Assembly: GCA_041500405.1 (NCBI GenBank)
Contig: JBGQMB010000002.1
Coordinates: 1 to 51,956, forward strand
Origin: Candidatus Micrarchaeia archaeon
Lineage (GTDB): Archaea > Micrarchaeota > Micrarchaeia > Anstonellales > J096
Length of the DNA: 51,956 nt
Direction of reading: 5' to 3'
Part shown: positions 4,666 to 43,667 of the stretch, one piece after another
Numbering within the stretch: position 1 is the first letter of the stretch
How the letters are laid out: every line of letters starts with the position of its first letter
Translations under genes and position numbers: made by a program
The notes under the pieces: generated by a model
What the model was told of the DNA's origin: nothing
The model's input: only the letters and a program-made list of their open reading frames with translations
Databases searched by the model: none

Positions 4666-7296
4666 ATGAATGGAATAAACCTAAGAAAGTTGGGCGCAAT
4701 AGTCGCCGGAGGAGCAATTTTGGCTAGCTCTGTGGCATTTGCTGGACTTGTTTTCCAGAACACAGAACTGGTTAACGCAAACGGCCAGCCGGTCGCGAAG
4801 ATCGTAGTTGGCGAGGATGCGGCAGCCTCTGACGGTGTTGCAGCAGCCATGATAGCGACCAAGATCGCAAACAGCGCGTACGCCGAGAAGGTGTACACTG
4901 CAGCGGTCCAGGGAACAGCTACATGCGGCGCAGCAGCAGCCGGAGCGGCATGCACAGTGACGGACAAGACCGTGACCCTTTCGATAGTCTACCCGGGAAT
5001 GACCGGAACGGCTATCCATGAGTTCGCGCCCCTGATAGCGGAAACGCTTGACAGGGAAGTGAACGACAGGGCACCGGACTACCAGTCAGTATCGTCTGAC
5101 CTTGAGGATGAGAAGTCTCACCCGTTCCAGGACCAAGACGGAGCTGTCTTCTTGTCGAGCGTAATACCTGAGTCTGACGCAAACGAGGACACGGCCAGGT
5201 ACTACAAGATAGACGGCAGCCAGTTGAGCGCGCTTGCGGACTACTCGATGGCGAGCAAGACTGCAACAAGCACATACACTGAGGCCCAGAAGATATACCT
5301 TATGGGATACACAGCGTACGACTCCAACGAGGAGGCGGTGAAGTATGTGCCCGAGTCAACAGTTTACCAAATGGTGTTCGGCCCAGACGAGGAGGGACTT
5401 TCCCTTTGTCCGGGTGACGACGGAACAGCGGTTGGAGACTGCGACGAGACGGACGCTCTTGGCAAGAACAGGTACAAGATAAAGCTTCTTGGATCTGACT
5501 GGGTCATAAGCGACGTTGTAGAGGGAGATGGTGCAGTCTTGAACGCGACTGACGGGGCTGTGTACGGCTCTGACACTGCAATGGCGGTGCCTGAGGACTC
5601 GACATTCACCCTGAAGCTCGCAAAAGAGGCTTCATACAACCCGGCGCTCCACAAGGGAGAGTGCATGAACACGACAGACGCGAAGATCTGCCTTTCGGAC
5701 ATTTCGAGGGAAACCGGAACCGAGAACACGCACCCGGCAATTCTTTCGATATATGACACCGCAGGAAACCTTGTGACTGAAAAGCAGGTTACCGAGGGAA
5801 CAACCGAGGAGATCGTTGTCGGGACAAAGACCATAAAGGTCCACGTCTACCAGACAGCGCCTGGTTATGCCATGCAAGCCATGTGGGCCGAGATTGCCAT
5901 ATACGCGGACGAGATTGAACTCAACGAGGGCAAGGAGTTCACGTATGGAATCGAGGGCTGGGATGGAGACGACTCCAACTGGAATGTCTACTTTGGCCTT
6001 GTCGACGTCAACTCGAACGGAGCTGACGAGGACGTGAGCAATGCGACAGGCATAAGGGCAATAACCTTTGCAACGACCGAGAGCGATGCGATGAGCGAGG
6101 GCGACCTCTTTGAGGGAGACTCTTACTACATCATCGACAGCGAAGGATACCAGGGCTTCCAAGTCACAAACAACGGGCTTGAGGACTGGAACATGGACAG
6201 CCTGAAGTTCGAGTACAAGAGCGGAGGAACCGCTGCTACTGCGAACATAACTGAGTACGTTAAGATAACGTCTCAGCAGGACAAGGCGTTCGACGTCGAC
6301 GGAATGGGCTGGAAGAGGGGAAGCACGCTCCTTATCGGCTACAATGAATCCGGCGGTGTCGTGGCGCTGAAGGACAGCGACAACGAATGGCAGGTTGACA
6401 CATACTCGAATGAGGACATCTTCTACGAGTATGCGGGAGACCAGTCGCTGATAGTGTCTGAGGACTTCGACAACACTGGGGATTCGTCCGTACCGGCGAA
6501 CTTGGTGAACTTCACAGTCACCTACGTTGAAAACGTGGGAGACGTGAACGCAACGGACTCCATAACGGGCAACATGTCGTTCTTTGTTGACTTCTCTGCG
6601 GCAGACGGGCTGCTTGGGGAAATCGACGGCAACGACGATGAGGTGATGTTCGGCATACCTGCTGAGCTTGGCGGAACATACGGATACTCTGACGGAGATA
6701 CGTATGACGTAGGATTCGTAACGCCGAGGGGAACCGAATTCAGCTCTGAATCGACGACCACAAGGACGTACAAGGTGCCTGCATATGTGAGGCACGTTCT
6801 GATGGCGGTCAAGCCGACATCTGTGAACGCCTCAAGGAACTCCGAGATAATCGGACCTCTCCACGAGGGAGACTCTGCGACTGTTGGTGGAACCATCACG
6901 GTCACTGTTGACTCCATAGACGTGGAATCGTCCGCATCTGTCAGCGGAGGGAGCTCGGGAAGCGCAGCGGACATGAGCAAGGTTTCGGCAGTCATAAAGG
7001 ACTCGTCCGGAGCAACAATGTCCACGCTTACTGCAAAGGATGTCTATGCGATAGACGCAGCGCAGTTTGTGTACCTTGACTCGCAGGCGCCTGCGACGGG
7101 AACAATAATCACCGTCGGCGGCCCGGCAGTCAACTCTGTAACGGCTGCAGCCATGGAAGGAGCTGCGGTTGACTTGTCAGCAGACAACCCTGTCGTAACG
7201 AAGGAGGCTGGGGACAAGATAATCGTTGCAGGATGGACAGCAGACGACACAATAACGGCTGCAGCGCAGTTCATCGCGGCACTTAAGGCGCAGTGA
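4666..7296 (+). CDS. S-layer (surface layer) protein
   Basis: 876 aa. Signal-anchor LGAIVAGGAILASSVAFAG. The N-terminal KIVVGEDAAASDGVAAAMIATKIA and the C-terminal IIVAGWTADDTITAAAQFIAALKAQ resemble the S_layer_N / S_layer_C ends of euryarchaeal S-layer proteins. The product is acidic and T/S/D-rich with many N-x-S/T sites. Confidence 0.8.
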   Translation: MNGINLRKLGAIVAGGAILASSVAFAGLVFQNTELVNANGQPVAKIVVGEDAAASDGVAAAMIATKIANSAYAEKVYTAAVQGTATCGAAAAGAACTVTDKTVTLSIVYPGMTGTAIHEFAPLIAETLDREVNDRAPDYQSVSSDLEDEKSHPFQDQDGAVFLSSVIPESDANEDTARYYKIDGSQLSALADYSMASKTATSTYTEAQKIYLMGYTAYDSNEEAVKYVPESTVYQMVFGPDEEGLSLCPGDDGTAVGDCDETDALGKNRYKIKLLGSDWVISDVVEGDGAVLNATDGAVYGSDTAMAVPEDSTFTLKLAKEASYNPALHKGECMNTTDAKICLSDISRETGTENTHPAILSIYDTAGNLVTEKQVTEGTTEEIVVGTKTIKVHVYQTAPGYAMQAMWAEIAIYADEIELNEGKEFTYGIEGWDGDDSNWNVYFGLVDVNSNGADEDVSNATGIRAITFATTESDAMSEGDLFEGDSYYIIDSEGYQGFQVTNNGLEDWNMDSLKFEYKSGGTAATANITEYVKITSQQDKAFDVDGMGWKRGSTLLIGYNESGGVVALKDSDNEWQVDTYSNEDIFYEYAGDQSLIVSEDFDNTGDSSVPANLVNFTVTYVENVGDVNATDSITGNMSFFVDFSAADGLLGEIDGNDDEVMFGIPAELGGTYGYSDGDTYDVGFVTPRGTEFSSESTTTRTYKVPAYVRHVLMAVKPTSVNASRNSEIIGPLHEGDSATVGGTITVTVDSIDVESSASVSGGSSGSAADMSKVSAVIKDSSGATMSTLTAKDVYAIDAAQFVYLDSQAPATGTIITVGGPAVNSVTAAAMEGAAVDLSADNPVVTKEAGDKIIVAGWTADDTITAAAQFIAALKAQ

Positions 7297-10631: not shown

Positions 10632-10712
10632 CCGGACATTTGTTAGCCAAGCGCCTAGCCAAAGCGCTACGCATTTAAATGCCGCATCACAACTATCCAG
10701 CAGGTGCCAAAC

Positions 10713-11444
10713 ATGAAATGGATGATTGCGATTTTGTTTATAGCTGCGATAGCGCTTTTTGGGTGCATCCAGTCGGGAGATGGGGTGCTTGTGGGAAACG
10801 ACAGCGACATTCACGGCTGCAAGGGTTCCGCCGGATACTCGTGGTGCGAATCATTGCAGAAGTGCATACGCGTTTGGGAGGAGAACTGCACTGCCGGCAA
10901 CGGAACCGGCATCGCCAACCCCGCGTCGGTCAATTGCGTGAATAAGGGATACAATCTTACGATAAGGACTGATGCCGAAGGCGGGCAGTATGGCATTTGC
11001 TGGAAGGACGGATACAGTGAATGCGAAGAATGGGCGTTTTACAGGGGCGAGTGCCAAATCGTCGCAATCAATGCTACAGGGCTGGAGCCAAGGGCAGAGG
11101 GCCAGTTCTGCGGCGGGATAGCCGCGATACCGTGCCAGAAAGGCTTGCACTGCAAATTGGACGGAACTTATCCGGATGCAGGCGGGAAGTGCATAAAGGA
11201 TTGCGGCTGCAAGCTTATGACCAACGGAGCCGCGATGGGGTGCTTCGGCTGCGTCTATGTCAAGGAGCTTGGGTCATTCAACTGCACGAGCGCGCCAAAA
11301 GGCTGGCAGGTCTATGAAAAAGAGCCTGGCGCGATAGGCATACCTTATACATGCTACTGCGCAAGTTTCGGACCTGTGCATGCCACAATCAATGGTGTCA
11401 ATACTACATATGCCGCACACGGCGGATGCGAGCTGGCGCAGTGA
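10713..11444 (+). CDS. Secreted Cys-rich lipoprotein-like protein with a DUF333 (putative hemolysin-like) domain
   Basis: Signal/lipobox IALFGC. IANPASVNCVNKGYNLTIRTDAEGGQYGICWKDGYSECEEWAFYRGEC matches the DUF333 pattern. The C-terminal half is also Cys-rich. Confidence 0.75.
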   Translation: MKWMIAILFIAAIALFGCIQSGDGVLVGNDSDIHGCKGSAGYSWCESLQKCIRVWEENCTAGNGTGIANPASVNCVNKGYNLTIRTDAEGGQYGICWKDGYSECEEWAFYRGECQIVAINATGLEPRAEGQFCGGIAAIPCQKGLHCKLDGTYPDAGGKCIKDCGCKLMTNGAAMGCFGCVYVKELGSFNCTSAPKGWQVYEKEPGAIGIPYTCYCASFGPVHATINGVNTTYAAHGGCELAQ

Positions 11445-12802: not shown

Positions 12803-14584
12803 ATGGCCGCAAAGGAAATCAGGTGGGGCATTGAAGGGATAATCAAGGACGACAGCGAATTCCATGCCCTTGTGGAAGCCGCAAGGGAGGATGTAAAGAA
12901 GATACAATCGTTCCGCTCCAGCCTTTCCCCGCGCATGCCGATAGAGAAGTTCAAAGAAATAGTAATGCTTGAGGAAAGCCTGCATGAGAAGATTGCGCGG
13001 CTTTCGTCATATGCAGGCCTTATGTCAAGCGCTGACGTGAAATCCCAGCAGGCAATGAAATACGGCTCTTTGCTTGACACCCTTTCCATAGAGATTGCTG
13101 ACGCGGTAAGGTTCGTTTCGCACTGGATGAAGGGAAAGGACGTTGAAGGGATTGAGAAGCTGGATGACGGAAACGCAAAAAGGCTTTTTGCCGCAGTCCC
13201 TGAACTGGAATACAACATGAACTACGGCAGGCTTGCTGCAAGGCACACGCTTTCTGAAAAAGAGGAAAGCATAATACACAAGAAGGAGACAAACGGGATA
13301 GACGTGGTCTCTGAATTGTACAATCAGATAACCAACGACTTCTCGTTCATATTGGAAATCCGCGGAAGGAAAAAGAGGATAAACAACGTTGAAAAGGTCT
13401 CCAGCCTTTTCACAAGCCCGGACAGGGAGACAAGGAAGGCGGCGTATTCCGCCCTGCTTGGGACTTACAGGGAAAACAGGGAAAAGCTGTTCTGCATCTA
13501 TTCGGCAATCGCAAAGGACTGGAGGATAGACTGCGACATGAGGGGGTTTGCGTCGCCGATATCCTCAAGGAACTTCGCCAACCAGGTTCCGGATGGCGCT
13601 GTGGATGCGCTGCTCGAATCATGCGTTGCCAACGCGCCGGTTTTCCACCAGTATTTTCGTGAAAAGGCGCGGATGCTTGGGCTTGAAAAGCTGGAAAGGC
13701 ATGACGTTTATGCGCCGCTGATCAACGAAAAAAAGGAAAACTACTCATACAGCGGCGCAATGAAGACAGTGCTTTCGTGCCTTGGCGAGTTCAGCCCAAG
13801 GTTCAGGGAAAAGGCGGAAATGGCCATAAATGAAGGCCATGTTGACGTTTACCCAAGGGAAAACAAGAGGCACGGCGCATTCTGCGCGGCAATAACCCCG
13901 AAAATCAATCCGTATGTTTTGCTGAACTTCACTGGCAGGAGAAGGGACGTTTTCATACTTGCGCACGAGCTGGGCCATGCGGTGCACGACATATATTCGT
14001 CGCGGCTGCCGATAGGCGCGATGCACGCTTCGCTTCCGCTTGCAGAGACCGCATCAACCCTGAGTGAGCTGGTGCTTTTCGACAAGCTGCTGGAAAAGGC
14101 GGAAGGCGAAAACCGGGCAGGGCTGCTGTCAAACAAGGCCGGGGAAAGCTGGGCAACGATAACGCGGCAGTGCTGGTTCACGGTTTTTGAGAAGGAGGCA
14201 CATAGGAGAATATACGACGAAAACATAAGCGAGGAGGAGCTCAGCAAGCTTTATTATGACACCACTCTGCCGCAGTTCGGGAACAGCGTGAATTTCGGCA
14301 AGGAGTTCAGCCATGAATGGGCATACATAGCGCACATCTTCCATTCCCCGTTCTACTGCTATTCGTACAGCTTCGGGGATTTGCTTTCGTTCGCGCTTTA
14401 TTCAAGGTATAAAAAAGAGGGCAAGGATTTCGTGCCAAGCATAGAGAAAGTGCTCTCAAGCGGCTCAAGCAGGGCGCCTGCTGATGTCCTGCTGGACCTG
14501 GGCTTTGACATAACCAAGAAATCTTTCTGGGATTCGGGGTTTGATGTGCCGAAAGGATGGATAAGCGAGATGGGAAAGCCCTGA
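12803..14584 (+). CDS. pepF: Oligoendopeptidase F-like M3B metallopeptidase
   Basis: 593 aa. HExxH zinc site in ILAHELGHAVHD and a downstream Glu ligand region (LAETASTLSE). Confidence 0.88.
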   Translation: MAAKEIRWGIEGIIKDDSEFHALVEAAREDVKKIQSFRSSLSPRMPIEKFKEIVMLEESLHEKIARLSSYAGLMSSADVKSQQAMKYGSLLDTLSIEIADAVRFVSHWMKGKDVEGIEKLDDGNAKRLFAAVPELEYNMNYGRLAARHTLSEKEESIIHKKETNGIDVVSELYNQITNDFSFILEIRGRKKRINNVEKVSSLFTSPDRETRKAAYSALLGTYRENREKLFCIYSAIAKDWRIDCDMRGFASPISSRNFANQVPDGAVDALLESCVANAPVFHQYFREKARMLGLEKLERHDVYAPLINEKKENYSYSGAMKTVLSCLGEFSPRFREKAEMAINEGHVDVYPRENKRHGAFCAAITPKINPYVLLNFTGRRRDVFILAHELGHAVHDIYSSRLPIGAMHASLPLAETASTLSELVLFDKLLEKAEGENRAGLLSNKAGESWATITRQCWFTVFEKEAHRRIYDENISEEELSKLYYDTTLPQFGNSVNFGKEFSHEWAYIAHIFHSPFYCYSYSFGDLLSFALYSRYKKEGKDFVPSIEKVLSSGSSRAPADVLLDLGFDITKKSFWDSGFDVPKGWISEMGKP

Positions 14585-14674
14585 GGTTTTGTTTCAAAAA
14601 ATATGTTTTTGTGGTTGAAAAAACATTCCCTTTATAATGAAAAACGGGCAAAACGAATTAAACTGGTGTTTTGC

Positions 14675-15853
14675 ATGAATAGCATTGATTATGAAAGATT
14701 GATAATAATACTTGCAGGGATTGTGATTGTCAGCGGGGCAACGCTGCTGGTTTCGGATTTCCTCAGGGGAGGAAGCCAGGCGCAGACCTACATCGTGAGC
14801 TATTCGGACGGCAATTCGACCGCGGTCGGCGTGGCAACGAAGCTTCCGGACGGGACTTACAGGCTGGACAGCGGCAAACTGCTTAGCGCCAGCGCAAACA
14901 ACATTTCAGTCATAAAGGCCGTGGCCTGCGCGAACGCCTCTGTGGCAAGCTGCCAGAAGTGCGAAACGTGCCCGGAGACTGTTGACACTTGCGCAAATAC
15001 AACGAACGCGAACCAGACCCAGGAAACGCCGTCTTGCTTTAGCAACAACGAAAGGTGCAGCTACAGCAAGGAATGCTGCTCAGGATACTGCAACACAAGC
15101 GCAGGAAGGTGCGGCGTGATGCCGTCCTGCTACGGAGTCGGGGAGATGTGCACAGCATCTGCGACAGCCGGCAACGCGCTGAGCTGCTGCAGCGGGCTTT
15201 CCTGCAACCCCAACACCGGGGCTTGCGAGGAACAGTGCAAGGCGATAGGCATTGCGTGCGACAAGGACACCGCGTGCTGCTCAGGATACTGCAATGACGC
15301 AACAAAGAAATGCGACAACAAGAACGTAAGTTACCAGTGCACGTCGCAATACTGCGCCAGCGGAACATTGTACACGTCGTGCCACTGGGACAGTGACATA
15401 TCAAGGTGCGCGTGCAACCAAGCGGCGTGCGACAGCCAGCAGTGCACAAGCGACGGAACTGGATGTGTTGAGAACACCGCATGCACCGAGAACAGGAAGG
15501 ACTGCCAGTCCAGCAGCGACTGCTGCTCAAAATACTGCAACACGACTGCCGGAACATGCGCCGCATACCCGAAATGCGACGCATCCTACTGCGAAAACGG
15601 GGTGTTCTACACCAACTGCGCGTTCAACTTCATGTACAACGGATGCAGCTGCAGCGGCGAATCCATATGCAGCACAGGCAGATGCACTGAAAGCGGAACC
15701 GCATGCGACAAGCAGGCGTGCCCTGAAAGCTACTGCAAGAACGGCGTGCTGTTCTATGAGTGCGCAACAAACGCAAACGGAGGATGTTCGTGCAAGCAGA
15801 GCGCATGCCCAAGCCAGCAGTGCAACGTGGACGGGTGGACGTGCGCAGAGTAG
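14675..15853 (+). CDS. Membrane-anchored extracellular Cys-rich protein with repeated knottin-like units
   Basis: The start is taken at MNSIDYERLIIILAGIVIVSGATLLV (TM anchor). It has four C-x6-C-x5(11)-CC-x3(4)-C-x6-C units and three 8-Cys modules; see findings. Confidence 0.75.
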   Translation: MNSIDYERLIIILAGIVIVSGATLLVSDFLRGGSQAQTYIVSYSDGNSTAVGVATKLPDGTYRLDSGKLLSASANNISVIKAVACANASVASCQKCETCPETVDTCANTTNANQTQETPSCFSNNERCSYSKECCSGYCNTSAGRCGVMPSCYGVGEMCTASATAGNALSCCSGLSCNPNTGACEEQCKAIGIACDKDTACCSGYCNDATKKCDNKNVSYQCTSQYCASGTLYTSCHWDSDISRCACNQAACDSQQCTSDGTGCVENTACTENRKDCQSSSDCCSKYCNTTAGTCAAYPKCDASYCENGVFYTNCAFNFMYNGCSCSGESICSTGRCTESGTACDKQACPESYCKNGVLFYECATNANGGCSCKQSACPSQQCNVDGWTCAE

Positions 15854-15896: not shown

Positions 15897-16463
15897 CTAT
15901 TTTGAAAGGCCCAGAATGCTTTTTAGCAAAACCGGCAGCTTCTTTATGCCGTCATCGCCGCTGAAGTGCCCCATGTTGTGCTTGACTAACACTTTGGCGT
16001 TCAGGTTATTTTTGAAGAAGTCGGCATAATGGGGCGAAACATAAGGGTCATTGTCGGAATGGATTGCAACAAATTTCCTGCAATGGGACCTTATCTTTTT
16101 CCAATCTATCGGTTTCGTGAAGAAGCTGCCCAATTCCTCGAAGCCAAGGTTCGATGTGAATCCCGCGACCAGCACAACCCCGCCGACTTTTTCGTTGCGC
16201 TTAAGCGTCTCAAGATATCTCAATATCGTTATGCAGCCCAGGCTGTGGCCCGTAAGATAGCAATCCTTGTCCGGGGTTTTGACAATTTTTGCCAAATGGC
16301 TTAACCAGGGATTCATTTTCGGGTGTTTTGTGTCCGGCATTGCCGGAACGGACACGTTGAATCCTCTCTTTTCCAGCTCATCCTTTAGCCACGGCCTCCA
16401 TCCTTCTTTGGGAGACCCTTCCCAGCCATGTATGACAAAAACCCGCTTTTTCATATGCTTCAA
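15897..16463 (-). CDS. YdeN/RBBP9-like alpha/beta serine hydrolase
   Basis: 188 aa. VFVIHGW...GHSLGC nucleophile elbow, then SDNDPYV and GHF (Asp/His of the triad). Confidence 0.82.
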   Translation of the reverse strand: MKHMKKRVFVIHGWEGSPKEGWRPWLKDELEKRGFNVSVPAMPDTKHPKMNPWLSHLAKIVKTPDKDCYLTGHSLGCITILRYLETLKRNEKVGGVVLVAGFTSNLGFEELGSFFTKPIDWKKIRSHCRKFVAIHSDNDPYVSPHYADFFKNNLNAKVLVKHNMGHFSGDDGIKKLPVLLKSILGLSK

Positions 16464-16478
16464 CCCCGTTTTGCGATT

Positions 16479-16551
16479 TAGCCCCGCCCGGATTCGAACC
16501 GGGGTCCCCAGGTCCAGAGCCTGGTATCCTTAACCGCTAGACTACGGGGCT
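16479..16551 (-). tRNA. tRNA-Gln (anticodon CUG)
   Basis: Folded by hand. Acceptor AGCCCCG/CGGGGCT, D stem GTCT/GGAT, anticodon arm CCAGG-CTCTGGA-CCTGG, T arm CCCGG-TTCGAAT-CCGGG, discriminator A. 73 nt, no encoded CCA. Confidence 0.88.
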
Positions 16552-17265
16552 TTTTGCACTATCCCTTACGCTGGGCAACTTTTTAAAAATCCTGCTGTGC
16601 TCAGTCCGACTGAGGGTTTTGCCGTTCCAGAGGAACCTTTCAAGAAGAACGTCCCCCTCAAAGCCGTTTTGCCCGGACTCAAGCAAAAGCTCCTTTGTAT
16701 TGCCCAAAATCACGTATCCGTTTTCTTTTTTCGCGATTTTCCCGCTTATGTTGTACAGCCCTTCCTCTTCAACAGCGTCCGCGCCTTTGAACCCCGCCTT
16801 CTTGAGCACTGCAAGCGTTCCGCTGTATCCGAGCTGGACCGCGCCGAACGAGAAATCGCACCCGCGAAGCAGTATCTCGTCCCCGTAAACCAGCCTGTAC
16901 TTGTCATACTGCGTCCTCCAAAGCCTCAAGACCGTTTTTCCCTCTTCATTCACAATCCCGATGTCCCTGAAAGACGTTTTCGGCGTGTTGACTATTCCTG
17001 AAACATAGTCAACAGTGGCTTTCAAACTGAATCCTTTCATGCCGTCCTTGAGTTCCTTTATGCTGGCAAGGCCAGGCCCCGTAAGCCCCCTTTCCTCGGC
17101 TATCAGGCCTATTGCCTTGTCCCTGTCAACGAGCCCGGAAAGCTCCTCCATCTTTTCCTTGATTTTGGCTTCCAGCTCGTCCTTGCCCATGCTGGACTCC
17201 AGCATATCGTTTGGATCCATCAGATTGGATTGATGTTTGCCCTTTAAATCCTTATTCGGGGCCAT
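16537..17265 (-). CDS. RPA-like OB-fold ssDNA-binding protein (putative)
   Basis: The N-terminal helical module EELSGLVDRDKAIGLIAEERGL is typical of archaeal RPA N-termini. It is followed by OB-fold-like beta segments (FSLKATVDYVSGI...FRDIGIVNEEGKTVLRLWRTQ). The last 15 nt overlap the tRNA-Gln 5' end. Confidence 0.6.
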   Translation of the reverse strand: MAPNKDLKGKHQSNLMDPNDMLESSMGKDELEAKIKEKMEELSGLVDRDKAIGLIAEERGLTGPGLASIKELKDGMKGFSLKATVDYVSGIVNTPKTSFRDIGIVNEEGKTVLRLWRTQYDKYRLVYGDEILLRGCDFSFGAVQLGYSGTLAVLKKAGFKGADAVEEEGLYNISGKIAKKENGYVILGNTKELLLESGQNGFEGDVLLERFLWNGKTLSRTEHSRIFKKLPSVRDSAKSPVV

Positions 17266-23523: not shown

Positions 23524-23613
23524 TACTAAAAATTAGCGAACTTTGGCAAATGCCGAAGTCCGGGGCTTATGCCTTTTTAACGTTTTTGAGCGGAGATGTA
23601 TCAAGTGGTTTTG

Positions 23614-25389
23614 ATGGACATCGTGATAAAGATAGGCGCTGCCGCCGGGGAAGGGGCCTTTGTTATGGGCGCCACTGCAGGCAGGCTGTTCGCAAGGGGA
23701 GGATACCACGTTTTCGGGTATCCCGAATACCCGTCCCTGATAAGGGGAGGGCACAACTCATACCAGATAATCGTCTCTGACAGGAAGCTTGACGCCCCGC
23801 TGATGGAAAGCGACGTTGTCATAGCAGTGAACAAGGACGCGATAAAGTTCCATGCCGACTCCATAAAGAAGGGAGGGCTCCTGCTCTACGATTCGGAGCT
23901 GGATGTAAGCGGCATGAGCATAAGGGAGGATGTGAAGAAGGTGGGCGTGCCTGTCGCAAGCATAATAAGCGAGCAGAAGGCGGACCCGAAGATGAAAAAC
24001 ACCGCCTATCTGGGGGCGATGCTCGCAACAGTGGATTATCCCCTTGAGTATTTGACAAAGGCGCTTGAGGACCAGTTTTCAAGGAAGGGAAAGGATGTTG
24101 TTGACATGAATGTCAGGGTCGCAAAGGCCGGATATGACTATGTCAAATCGCAGTTCAAGCCAAGCGCGGCCATAAAGCCGATAGGCGGGCCAAGGCCGTA
24201 TATGACAGGCAATGATGCGCTTGCCATAGGATTCATAAGGGGAGGGCTCACGTTCTACGCGTCATACCCCATGACGCCGGCAACAACAATCCTGCATTAC
24301 CTTATCAAGAACCAGGAGAAGGCCGGTATAGTGGTCCTGCAGGCAGAGGACGAGATAGCCGCCGCGAACATGGCGGTCGGCGCGGCTTTCGCAGGGGCAA
24401 GGGCCGCCACAGGGACCAGCGGGGGCGGATTCGCGCTGAAAACCGAGACTGTCAGCATGGCGGCAATGGCGGAAACGCCGGTCGTTTTCTTCCTTGCGCA
24501 AAGGTCCGGGCCTTCAACAGGCATGCCGACCTGGACCGAGCAGGCTGACCTGTTCCAGGTGCTTGGGGCGGGGCAGGGCGAATTCCCAAGGGTCATCCTT
24601 GCGCCGGCAGACGCAAAGGAGATGGTGCAGATAGGCGCAGACTCGCTCAACATAGCCGAGGAGTTCCAGGTTCCGGTTTTCGTGCTTTCAGACAAGTACC
24701 TTTCGGAGAACTATTATACGATAGACGGGCTTGACATGGCGCACTTCAAGGTCAATAGGGGAAAGCTCGCCGACAGGGGGCTTCCGGAGCTCAAGCCAGG
24801 GCAGAAGTTCAAGAGATACGAGATAACGCAGGACGGCATATCGCCAAGAAGCGTTCCGGGCGTTCCGAACGGCCAGCACGTTGCCTCAAGCTACGAGCAC
24901 CAGGAGGACGGATATTCAACAGAATCGTTTGACATGAGGACCGCGCAGGTCGACAAGAGGCTTAGGAAGCTGGAAAAGATGCTGGCGCGCTCATACGAGC
25001 CGAAAATATACTCATTCAAGGGGGACGACGCCCTTGTTGTCTGGGGCTCCCAGCTCGGGCCGGCGCTCAAGGCCGCGGAAGAGGCGAAGATGGACGTCAT
25101 ACATTTCAGCTGGATATACCCGCTCAGCAAAGAGAAGATAATCAAGGCGTTCTCGAACTACAAGGCCGTTTATTTTGCGGAGAACAACAGGACCGGCGTG
25201 TTCGAAAAGGTCATGCTGCAGGAAACAGGGATAAGGCCCGTTGCGTCCATAAGGAAATACAACGGCAGGCCCCTGCTGCCCCACCAGCTGGTGAAGGCAA
25301 TGGAAACCGTGAGAAAGACAGGAAAGGATTGCCTGATAAAGAATGAGGAATATGACAATTTCGAGTTCTACTCCCCATGGAGATACTGA
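23614..25389 (+). CDS. 2-oxoacid:ferredoxin oxidoreductase, alpha subunit (fused gamma-alpha type)
   Basis: The N-terminal gamma-like module is IKIGAAAGEGAFVMGATAGRLFARGGYHVFGYPEYPSLIRGGHN. The alpha domain follows (MTGNDALAIGFIRGG...YPMTPAT...AEDEIAAANMAVGAAFAGARAATGTSGGGFAL). This is the two-subunit archaeal OFOR architecture. Confidence 0.88.
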   Translation: MDIVIKIGAAAGEGAFVMGATAGRLFARGGYHVFGYPEYPSLIRGGHNSYQIIVSDRKLDAPLMESDVVIAVNKDAIKFHADSIKKGGLLLYDSELDVSGMSIREDVKKVGVPVASIISEQKADPKMKNTAYLGAMLATVDYPLEYLTKALEDQFSRKGKDVVDMNVRVAKAGYDYVKSQFKPSAAIKPIGGPRPYMTGNDALAIGFIRGGLTFYASYPMTPATTILHYLIKNQEKAGIVVLQAEDEIAAANMAVGAAFAGARAATGTSGGGFALKTETVSMAAMAETPVVFFLAQRSGPSTGMPTWTEQADLFQVLGAGQGEFPRVILAPADAKEMVQIGADSLNIAEEFQVPVFVLSDKYLSENYYTIDGLDMAHFKVNRGKLADRGLPELKPGQKFKRYEITQDGISPRSVPGVPNGQHVASSYEHQEDGYSTESFDMRTAQVDKRLRKLEKMLARSYEPKIYSFKGDDALVVWGSQLGPALKAAEEAKMDVIHFSWIYPLSKEKIIKAFSNYKAVYFAENNRTGVFEKVMLQETGIRPVASIRKYNGRPLLPHQLVKAMETVRKTGKDCLIKNEEYDNFEFYSPWRY

Positions 25390-42273: not shown

Positions 42274-43667
42274 TGACATGATGAGTAAGAAATCCCAAGT
42301 GCTTTAGCTGTGGGATGAAAGCTAACAATATGTAGAAAAAAGCAAGGTTTTATCCAAAATGCGCCGATAAACCTCACATCTTCTTTAATGGTAAGAATAT
42401 ATCACAAACATGTTTGGCAATGAGGCCTGCAATTCTTTATAAATGCCAAAAAACCAAAGAATTAAGGGACAATAAATGAGATCTTACAAATTCAGGAGAT
42501 ATCCGAGCAAAACACAGGAAGAAAAAATGCGTGAGCACCTTTGGATAGCAAAAGAATTATGGAACAGGATGCTTGAGGCAACGATAAAAAAGTATAATTT
42601 AGAAAAGAAGTTCTATTCAAAATCAGAGCTTCAGTTCATGACCAAAAACAGCGGTCTATATTCCCAAACAGCTCAGGGGGTAGCACATAGGCTGGATAGA
42701 GCCTTGAAAGCGAAAATGCGCATGAAAAAGAAGGAAGAAAAAGGCGGCTTCCCGCGCTTCAAATCCTTTTTCAAAATGAAAAGTCTCTTTTATCCGCAAT
42801 CTGGCTTTTCTCTTGGCAAGAAACTGAAAGTAAGCCCATTTGGGGAAATAAGCATAAAGAAGCATAGAGAGATAAAAGGAAAGATCAAAACTCTCACGAT
42901 AAAGCGTATGCCGTCTGGCAAATGGTTTGCAGTTTTCTGTGCTGAACAGGAACAAAAGTCAATAAGAGAAAACAATGGAATACAGATTGGGATAGACCTC
43001 GGCTTGAAGACTTTTGCCGCTCTTTCAAATGGAATGACCATCGCTAACCCAAGGCACCTGAAAAGATATGAGAATAAGCTTGCGTCTCTCCAAAGGAAGG
43101 TTTCAAAAAGGGAAAAATGCAGCGGAAAAAGAAGGAAAGCAAACCTGAAAGTTGAACGCTTGCATGAAAAGATAGCTAACACAAGGAAGGATTTCTTGCA
43201 TAAAACGTCAACGCAATTGGTAAATAATTATTCCCTTATAGCGTTGGAGAAGCTTGCCAGCAAGAAAATGGCAGGTCAGAATTTGGGAAAGTTAATCAAT
43301 GACGCCGGATGGGGAATGTTCGCGAACATGATTCGCTACAAGGCTGAAAGTGCTGGTTGTGAAGTTGTGTTTGTGGATCCGGAGAATACTACGCAAGAGT
43401 GCAGCAGCTGCGGTCAGATAGTAAATAAAGAATTACACGAAAGAACGCATAACTGTCCGTTCTGCGGTCTTTCTGTAGATAGGGATTTGAACGCATCAAT
43501 AAACATACTCAAAAGAGCTACCGCCGGGCAGGCGGGAAGTAACGCTTCTGGAGACGGAACAAGAATTCCGTCATTGAAGGAAGAAGCCCACGCCTTTTAA
43601 GGATAGGGCTTGTCACAAAAACAACAGTTGAAGCTTAATCATGTCAAATACCACCTAAAAGATTAAG
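42274..43667 (+). mobile_element. IS200/IS605-superfamily TnpB-only element (boundaries approximate)
   Basis: A+T-rich relative to its flanks. TGACATGAT..TAAG at 42274-42289 is mirrored by CTTAATCATGTCA at 43634-43646. There are hairpins at 42292-42316 (ATCCCA...TGGGAT) and 43634-43667 (CTTAATC...GATTAAG). No tnpA is present. Confidence 0.55.
42476..43600 (+). CDS. tnpB: TnpB (IS605 OrfB family) RuvC-like, probably RNA-guided, nuclease
   Basis: 374 aa. N-terminus YKFRRYPSKTQEE. RuvC-I IGIDLGLKTFAALSNG, RuvC-II IALEKL, zinc finger CSSCGQ...HNCPFCG, RuvC-III DRDLNASINIL. Confidence 0.9.
   Translation: MRSYKFRRYPSKTQEEKMREHLWIAKELWNRMLEATIKKYNLEKKFYSKSELQFMTKNSGLYSQTAQGVAHRLDRALKAKMRMKKKEEKGGFPRFKSFFKMKSLFYPQSGFSLGKKLKVSPFGEISIKKHREIKGKIKTLTIKRMPSGKWFAVFCAEQEQKSIRENNGIQIGIDLGLKTFAALSNGMTIANPRHLKRYENKLASLQRKVSKREKCSGKRRKANLKVERLHEKIANTRKDFLHKTSTQLVNNYSLIALEKLASKKMAGQNLGKLINDAGWGMFANMIRYKAESAGCEVVFVDPENTTQECSSCGQIVNKELHERTHNCPFCGLSVDRDLNASINILKRATAGQAGSNASGDGTRIPSLKEEAHAF

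Follow-up and report, generated by a model that had tools for sequence, protein, structure and literature searches.

Can an archaeon build a surface protein from knottins, the disulfide-rich units of the inhibitor cystine knot (ICK) type? The question is raised by a gene located at positions 14675-15853 of contig JBGQMB010000002.1 of a Candidatus Micrarchaeia archaeon (GenBank assembly GCA_041500405.1), within the 51,956 nucleotide stretch of DNA (positions 1 to 51,956 of the contig) that was analysed here and is hereafter referred to as the window. The 392 amino acid translated product contains 53 cysteines (13.5%), and the original prediction, made from the sequence alone, described it as a membrane-anchored protein in which four knottin-like units are interleaved with three eight-cysteine modules, an architecture that it held to be unusual for an archaeon. 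This expectation is borne out by the 2017 knottin database paper, in which knottins are reported as absent from archaea. We propose that the four units, here termed A units, are very probably true knottins, and that they are probably carried by an N-terminally anchored extracellular protein in which a head domain and seven disulfide-locked modules form a stiff surface stalk or binding array.

The mechanical open reading frame (ORF) spans positions 14603-15853 on the forward strand and opens at an ATG at 14603, and in its translation the peptides and coordinates quoted in the original prediction were found to be exact and in frame. The true start is almost certainly the ATG at 14675 (MNSIDYER...), rather than the first ATG at 14603, since homologs begin with MDYER and, in a metagenomic ortholog (L015), the 28 in-frame codons that were read 5' of its MDYER-type start include no ATG. 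Behind an anchor, a head domain and a linker, the modules follow one another in the order A1-A2-A3-B1-A4-B2-B3, with four copies of the A framework (C-x6-C-x5(11)-CC-x3(4)-C-x6-C) and three of the B framework (C-x4-C-x8-C-x7/8-C-x-C-x4/5-C-x4-C-x6-C) present where they had been predicted:

14675..15853, + strand: coding sequence of the cysteine-rich surface protein (P0001), 392 amino acids, stop codon included
14699..14755, + strand: N-terminal hydrophobic segment LIIILAGIVIVSGATLLVS, residues 9-27, conserved in homologs
14756..14926, + strand: juxtamembrane head domain, residues 28-84, QTYIVSYSDGN...ATKLPDGTYRLDSGKLL...SVIK, conserved across the family
14927..15034, + strand: cysteine- and sequon-rich linker, residues 85-120, five cysteines, weakly conserved between orthologs
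15035..15112, + strand: A1, CFSNNERCSYSKECCSGYCNTSAGRC, knottin-like unit with loops 6-5-0-3-6
15128..15226, + strand: A2, knottin-like unit with a long loop 2 (loops 6-11-0-4-6)
15236..15313, + strand: A3, CKAIGIACDKDTACCSGYCNDATKKC, knottin-like unit modelled by AlphaFold2 (predicted local distance difference test score, pLDDT, 91)
15338..15466, + strand: B1, family-specific eight-cysteine module
15482..15559, + strand: A4, knottin-like unit that opens the conserved C-terminal A-B-B tip
15575..15706, + strand: B2, eight-cysteine module, modelled as a three-stranded antiparallel sheet and a C-terminal loop
15719..15844, + strand: B3, eight-cysteine module, with the protein ending two residues on

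The modules are separated by linkers of only three to eight residues (GVMPS, EEQ, DNKNVSYQ, VENTA, AAYPK and DKQA), and the C-terminus, two residues after B3, carries neither an anchor nor a sorting signal. Hydropathy analysis agrees with the single N-terminal anchor of the original prediction: the segment LIIILAGIVIVSGATLLVS has a mean Kyte-Doolittle value of 2.67 over 19 amino acids and is the sole hydrophobic stretch in an otherwise polar protein, and it is likely to represent a signal-anchor or transmembrane helix. Class III signal peptides are recognizable by a short, charged N-terminal stretch with [KR]-[GA] at its end, after which come Q/A/S-x-x-E and hydrophobic residues. A pilin-like signal of this class was considered for the window protein and rejected, as its N-terminus (MNSIDYER-LIIILAG) lacks such a site. 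Eight N-x-S/T sequons occur in the window protein and 14 in each close ortholog. A cysteine-rich ORF on the reverse strand (15039-15584) was dismissed as a mirror artefact.

The arrangement of the cysteines is not a by-product of their abundance. When the ectodomain was shuffled 200,000 times with its composition preserved, one copy of the A pattern arose in 229 shuffles and two or more in none, as against the four observed, while the B pattern, observed three times, did not arise at all (0/200,000). Furthermore, the archaeal origin of the protein is confirmed by a syntenic ortholog in the metagenome-assembled genome (MAG) of Candidatus Micrarchaeia archaeon OBJ2_061818_130_7 (JBGQMY010000005.1; amino acid identity: 59-60%), where the gene is likewise flanked by a Peptidase_M3 gene (PepF) upstream and ProRS downstream. 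The two orthologs share 51 of the 53 cysteines and differ at 101, 99 and 166 codon positions 1, 2 and 3, respectively. The retention of the cysteines and the excess of third-position differences together indicate that 14675-15853 is a real and constrained gene. Judging from its 59% identity, as compared to 69-81% for the neighbouring housekeeping proteins, the protein evolves faster than its neighbours, as is typical of surface proteins.

Three independent routes, namely a profile search of PDB sequences, a unit-wise Pfam scan and AlphaFold2 modelling combined with Foldseek, support the knottin-like nature of the A units that had been proposed from their cysteine spacing. A profile of 37 archaeal A units was compared against 177,635 distinct PDB sequences and produced 50 matches at E<=10, all of which, with the exception of three thanatin entries, we take to be cystine-knot peptides, going by the depositors' names. 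The best of these are atracotoxin-Hv1 (1axh; e-value: 0.002), conotoxin GVIIJ (2n8h; e-value: 0.0025) and the double-ICK peptide Xt3a (7rz3; e-value: 0.0028), with huwentoxin/hainantoxin-type toxins, ω-conotoxins, ALO3, PAFP-S, asteropsin and nemertide among the others. The single e-values are marginal, yet the enrichment for knottins appears overwhelming. A similar picture emerged when 81 archaeal and bacterial A units, in all of which the six cysteines are invariant, were scanned one by one against Pfam. Nearly all of the families matched are knottin-type toxin or inhibitor families, including Conotoxin (50 of the 81 units), Conotoxin_I2 (47), Toxin_18 (36; best e-value: 2e-6), UPF0506 (24), Toxin_29 (24), Toxin_12 (21) and Toxin_21 (19), while the exceptions, Dickkopf_N (8), Stig1 (3), LEAP-2 (2) and WAP (1), are small disulfide-rich families. 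An EGF or granulin identity, which the original prediction had named as incompatible with its proposal, was sought in Pfam with the whole protein, its segments and the 81 single units, and no match to either was found at E<=10. Likewise, no known cysteine-rich repeat family was matched in a scan of NCBIfam, and searches of Pfam, NCBIfam and the PDB sequences with the whole protein returned nothing beyond a spurious APC_r match.

The third line of evidence is structural. The 32-residue A3 unit, modelled with AlphaFold2 from the alignment of 81 units, gave a mean pLDDT of 91.0, with values of at least 90 at 27 of the 32 residues. DSSP assigned a C-terminal β-hairpin (EE----EE) to residues 22-29, between Cys V and Cys VI, and the same hairpin pattern was seen for A4 in a model of A4-B2-B3. 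Foldseek comparison of the A3 model against the PDB yielded 21 matches, nearly all of them to solved knottins. The top neighbours are nemertide α-1 (template modelling (TM) score: 0.74/0.76; root-mean-square deviation (RMSD): 0.7 Å; 27 columns) and Pn3a (TMq: 0.76; RMSD: 1.4 Å; 29 columns), while others include conotoxin GVIIJ (1.6 Å; 33 columns), ω-atracotoxin, scytotoxins, the SOTI-III trypsin inhibitor and EETI-derived cystine-knot peptides, as well as colipase and LEAP-2. The superposition of the predicted backbone onto these structures suggests, though only indirectly, the knotted I-IV/II-V/III-VI connectivity, in which the III-VI bridge would pass through the ring closed by the other two. 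In addition to the cysteines, two features typical of ICK peptides recur, namely a Gly at position 4 of loop 1 and the CCSGxC motif.

The B module and the head domain have no such known counterparts. An AlphaFold2 model of A4-B2-B3, based on an alignment of 12 sequences, reached a mean pLDDT of 78.7, with about 77-92 in the B modules, each of which is predicted to form an antiparallel sheet of three strands and, after it, a loop pinned by a disulfide. A B profile found no match among the PDB sequences and, in an index of 5.8 billion proteins, only two fragments belonging to the family, with no relatives outside of it. Foldseek comparison of the A4-B2-B3 model against the PDB and BFVD returned only noise (E>0.5; probability <=0.2), and cyanovirin and Avr4 were rejected as fold relatives, their alignments having RMSDs of 4-8 Å. 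The possibility that B is a disguised A unit was similarly rejected (hhalign probability of B against A: 2.8%), the likeness between the two being confined to the last 13 residues of B (C-SQRC-NxxGTAC), which resemble the A hairpin. For the head domain, which has the consensus TYxIxYxDxN...ATKLxNGSYxLxxGxxL...VSV over approximately 55 amino acids, a profile search found nothing below E=0.29 in the PDB and nothing in Pfam. As far as the searched libraries show, the B module and the head thus appear to be new domain families.

The family to which the protein belongs also appears to be very small, as few relatives were found in the protein index, among cluster representatives or in metagenomes. 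A single-sequence search of the 5.8-billion-protein index recovered six relatives, to which the family profile added one (P0008). When 1.84 billion cluster representatives were read with the full family profile, approximately eight family clusters occurred in the top 150, the remaining top matches being multi-Kazal proteins. Hundreds of these unrelated proteins were drawn in at profile positions ~275-316, because the long homologs had contributed Kazal columns to the profile. One further close ortholog, L015, came from scanning metagenomes with the family alignment. Six metagenome loci were translated, and apart from L015 and L016, the latter a frame artefact, they contain distant A-type arrays.

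More distant relatives are encoded in Micrarchaeota MAGs. Common to all members of the family are an N-terminal anchor (a transmembrane helix, replaced in P0019 by a lipobox), the head, A units and the A-B-B arrangement at the C-terminal end, while the middle of the protein varies: the window protein has three A units and B1 there, and longer relatives have cysteine hairpins, five A units and either one Kazal domain or two. The latter, a Micrarchaeota group of paralogs or orthologs (P0004-P0008, P0014, P0019, P0025 and P0035; 550-645 amino acids), resemble the window protein in their anchor, head, A units and A-B-B tip but differ from it in the possession of six Y-x-C-x-DG-x-x-V...C hairpins, of one to two Kazal domains and of as many as six A units altogether. 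The Kazal_2 domain of P0004 scores 35.5 bits (cut-off: 22.8), and Kazal domains are also found in other long relatives. The six tandem hairpins (Y-x-C-x-DG-x-x-V-x4-5-C, with C-x10-C or x11 spacing) lie upstream of the Kazal domain in P0004-P0008, P0014 and P0019, for example at L003 5845-7779. These single-disulfide repeats find no match in Pfam and represent another undescribed mini-repeat.

Conservation is unevenly distributed along the protein. Among three close orthologs, identity at non-cysteine positions is 65-75% in A3, 56-74% in the head and 42-57% in the B modules, while it falls to 30-44% in A2, 25-35% in A1 and 19-55% in the cysteine-rich linker.

A units are also found elsewhere in prokaryotes. 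The family profile retrieved bacterial lipoprotein-like proteins with 9-17 tandem A units (e-values down to 6e-11), and a genome scan located A-unit arrays in MAGs labelled Myxococcota, Myxococcales, Polyangiaceae and 'delta proteobacterium'. The Myxococcota and Polyangiaceae proteins (P0009-P0013; L008-L012 and L014) share with the window protein the C-x3-G-x2-C-x5-CC-S-G-x-C-xn-C consensus and an N-terminal tether, in their case through lipobox-like signals, but differ in having much longer arrays and in lacking the head, B modules and Kazal domains. It is possible that these arrays are what the KNOTTIN database lists as 'bacterial knottins'. A second archaeal example occurs in archaeon isolate DeMMO2_26, an unclassified archaeal MAG (JAGVHI010000018.1; L013 4822-7824), where an ORF of more than 1000 amino acids that runs off the contig end encodes at least 18 A-type units, with 169 cysteines, behind a class III signal of the pilin-like kind, RGQAATEFVILF. 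This product, with the pilin-like signal region RGQAATEFVILFAVVLLVG, resembles a pilin-like surface protein composed of many knottins, here in a different archaeon. The A unit, which is not covered by any Pfam or NCBIfam family, is, on the basis of these occurrences, predicted to be a recurrent prokaryotic extracellular building block that is always tethered.

What might such a protein do? Few protein scaffolds are as stable as the knottins, which are widely used in drug design, and modules of the knottin type would be rigid and withstand proteases and denaturation. In the arrangement that we consider probable, the protein would be exported with its N-terminus kept in the membrane, and some 24 disulfides would lock each module of 26-44 residues, giving a stiff, protease-resistant and probably N-glycosylated stalk which projects from the membrane and presents binding surfaces. 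As the head and the A-B-B tip are conserved while the middle varies, the tip may recognise a conserved partner, located either on a host cell or within the envelope, with the middle serving as a variable spacer or as a segment for accessory binders; in the Kazal-bearing relatives the middle would probably add protease inhibition, which hints, by analogy, at a role against extracellular proteases. DPANN archaea are presumed to be host-dependent, and for a member of this group host contact or surface protection would be the most plausible setting. Any specific function, whether adhesion, binding or shielding, is nevertheless proposed tentatively and must be considered doubtful.

Several observations weigh against the assignment of the A units as knottins and against the tethered stalk. 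The single e-values in the PDB profile search are 0.002 at best, and every Pfam match with a listed cut-off falls below that cut-off: segments of the window protein reach 16.3 bits for UPF0506 (cut-off: 23.2) and 7.5 bits for Toxin_12, the homolog P0004 reaches 19.7 bits for Toxin_12 (cut-off: 21), and at the Pfam gathering score the window protein does not attain membership of a curated knottin family. No Foldseek e-value for A3 is <=0.001, which follows from a query of only 32 residues, and AlphaFold2 may rebuild a knottin fold from the cysteine framework alone. Cleavage of the N-terminal segment as a signal peptide (SQA-Q, after ...GGSQA) is conceivable, in which case the protein would be secreted and untethered. 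Its most variable parts, the linker, A1 and A2, are membrane-proximal and do not form the distal tip, which is unlike a classic adhesin under diversifying selection. Kazal domains (Pfam Kazal_1/Kazal_2) are not found in the window protein, and the hint of protease inhibition is thus not directly transferable to it. No conserved neighbourhood ties the family to a pathway, with the Micrarchaeota homolog of L003 being found in another neighbourhood, next to a P-type ATPase, and the genomic context provides no functional clue. Finally, a pyruvate:ferredoxin oxidoreductase (POR) encoded in the window hints at anaerobic metabolism, and if the habitat is anoxic and reducing, the formation and maintenance of ~24 extracellular disulfides needs explaining.

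Among the alternatives, the one that best survives these data holds that the protein is merely a spacer, in which a convergent cysteine framework with another disulfide pattern forms a strut in the envelope or surface layer (S-layer) without a specific ligand. The sub-threshold family-level matches, which are driven largely by cysteine spacing, are compatible with this explanation, and the knotted connectivity is itself a prediction. Module number and type differ between relatives, as would be expected of a spacer, and an S-layer-like gene is located in the same window. However, the predicted backbone fits solved knottins at 0.7-1.6 Å over nearly the whole unit, the ICK-typical loop-1 Gly and CCSGxC motif recur at non-cysteine positions, and conservation of the head and of the A-B-B tip suggests a role beyond that of a passive spacer. 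We therefore regard a mere spacer as quite improbable.

Display of protease inhibitors is less probable still. Here the knottin units, like those of squash or spinach, would inhibit host or environmental proteases and shield the surface of the symbiont, as is suggested by the bona fide Kazal domains of the longer family members and by the SOTI-III trypsin inhibitor and HTRA1-binding cystine-knot peptides among the structural neighbours. Three units furthermore show weak matches to Tryp_inh and one to Squash. Squash-type inhibitors carry their reactive site in loop 1. This loop is, however, not conserved between orthologs of the window protein (FSNNER, LNNSRK and INDSKP), the protein itself has no Kazal domain, and the strongest profile matches are to ion-channel toxins and not to inhibitor families. 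In favour of such a display, Kazal is among the folds that a 2026 survey of archaea found confined to DPANN members (PMC13607799).

A polyprotein precursor, cleaved between the units to free knottin peptides as toxins or antimicrobials, can be given little credence. Multi-knottin precursors exist in eukaryotes, and tandem ICK proteins have been discussed among the secreted cysteine-rich repeat proteins (SCREPs; PMC6262176), but the three- to eight-residue linkers of the window protein contain no dibasic or conserved cleavage motif and differ in sequence in the orthologs, the module types alternate along the chain, and the conserved head and membrane anchor would be needless. Of the functions proposed in the original prediction, that of toxin precursor is, given linkers without apparent processing sites, the least favoured. 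A metallothionein-like metal-binding or redox protein with free thiols is scarcely credible, since the cysteine content of 13.5% and the possibly anaerobic, POR-encoding organism are set against a spacing not dominated by CxxC or CxC (one CxC per B module excepted), a strict 6-5-0-3-6 period and predicted compact folds that suit disulfide domains, and an extracellular topology with glycosylation sequons.

The anchored stalk or binding array, which remains our preferred interpretation, can be compared with several known systems. The loops (6-5-0-3-6), the loop-1 Gly and the CCSGxC motif of the A units are shared with free ICK toxins such as the O-superfamily/I2 conotoxins, ω-atracotoxin-Hv1 and huwentoxin/Toxin_12, which are secreted eukaryotic peptides of ~25-40 amino acids, released from precursors and directed for the most part at ion channels. 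Unlike these toxins, the A units are chained, tethered to an archaeal membrane, rich in sequons and below the Pfam cut-offs, and the likeness may reflect either homology or convergence. Two or more knottins per chain, as observed here, are also found in tandem ICK proteins and SCREPs such as the venom proteins DkTx (Tau-theraphotoxin-Hs1a) and the remipede Xt3a (7rz3), both of which are matched by the A-unit profile. These proteins are eukaryotic or bacterial, soluble and mostly bivalent, whereas the window protein is archaeal and combines four knottin units with three non-knottin modules and a membrane anchor. The definition of a SCREP, an exported protein with at least two repeated disulfide-rich domains, applies to the seven modules that follow the export or anchor segment, although the probable tethering departs from it; the published SCREP catalogue covers eukaryotes and bacteria (PMC6262176). 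A purely functional analogy may be drawn with the variant-specific surface proteins of Giardia, which are described as a cysteine-rich, membrane-anchored and protease-resistant coat of a host-dependent organism (PMC6341118). The Giardia proteins are eukaryotic, with CXXC motifs and a C-terminal transmembrane anchor, and have no sequence or fold relation to the window protein; no gene family for antigenic variation, as in Giardia, was seen here.

In the literature on archaeal knottins, on cysteine-rich surface proteins of DPANN archaea and on DPANN archaea in combination with Kazal domains, no description of this family was found. In a survey of the PDB, none of the archaeal chains was predicted to be a sequential tri-disulfide peptide (PMC4491269), and a 2026 fold census of archaeal proteomes, which lists Kazal among the few DPANN-unique folds, makes no mention of knottins (PMC13607799). 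The ICK/knottin fold is thus a known one, and what would be new here is its domain of life and its tethered mosaic architecture, together with two undescribed modules. A conserved, selection-constrained archaeal protein with four confidently predicted knottin units would close the gap in the knottin distribution, as would the second archaeal protein with at least 18. In prokaryotes, knottins would then serve not as free toxins but as links of membrane-tethered chains with a structural or binding role. It is above all the surface proteins of the host-dependent DPANN archaea that are poorly understood, and the family is a candidate for host contact or surface protection, while the B module and head would provide new families for domain databases. 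A more far-reaching interpretation, which we consider rather unlikely, is that the A unit is the hallmark of a knottin superfamily so far overlooked in prokaryotes, spanning DPANN archaea and Myxococcota, that builds tethered surface fibres, with the Micrarchaeota protein acting as a host-interaction factor in episymbiosis, through attachment or the neutralisation of host surface proteases, and the B module representing a new fold in a ligand-binding tip. Were this the case, true cystine knots would extend to the third domain of life, and a prokaryotic ancestry of the eukaryotic ICK peptides would become a question.

Additional features of the window comprise a putative promoter and several neighbouring genes:

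14631..14638, + strand: TATA-box-like TTTATAAT, 44 nucleotides 5' of the ATG at 14675, read directly from the sequence
4666-7296, + strand: S_layer_C family protein (PF05124), 876 amino acids, likely the S-layer protein of this archaeon
10704-11444, + strand: DUF333 lipoprotein-like protein, 246 amino acids, 22 cysteines (DUF333: 60.6 bits), with 70% identity to the corresponding protein of the Micrarchaeia MAG
12803-14584: PepF
15897-16463, - strand: serine hydrolase, extra relative to the Micrarchaeia MAG
23596-25389, + strand: fused pyruvate:ferredoxin oxidoreductase subunit (POR + POR_N)
42476-43600, + strand: IS605-family OrfB/TnpB gene (OrfB_IS605, Cas12f1-like TNB and helix-turn-helix)

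The window furthermore encodes ScpA, ScpB and ProRS. The element TTTATAAT is a possible archaeal promoter element for the gene at 14675, going by its position and letters. The S_layer_C protein bears on how far a tethered stalk would have to reach. The DUF333 protein constitutes a second disulfide-rich exported protein, located 3 kb upstream of the gene under study. Downstream of the latter, comparison of 15897-17265 with L001 9171-10667 reveals that a conserved 242 amino acid ORF (16537-17265) is inverted relative to the Micrarchaeia MAG, and its 3' end overlaps a tRNA-Gln (16479-16551) by ~15 nucleotides. Together, the extra serine hydrolase and the inverted ORF represent a local rearrangement adjoining the gene. 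The IS605-family gene is probably part of an inserted mobile element, as the G+C content drops to 0.41 at 42-44 kb, as compared to ~0.52 elsewhere. A second stretch of low G+C content (0.41) is observed at positions 1-2000 of the window, where an ORF for the specificity subunit of a type I restriction-modification system (50-766) adjoins an rRNA adenine dimethylase gene.

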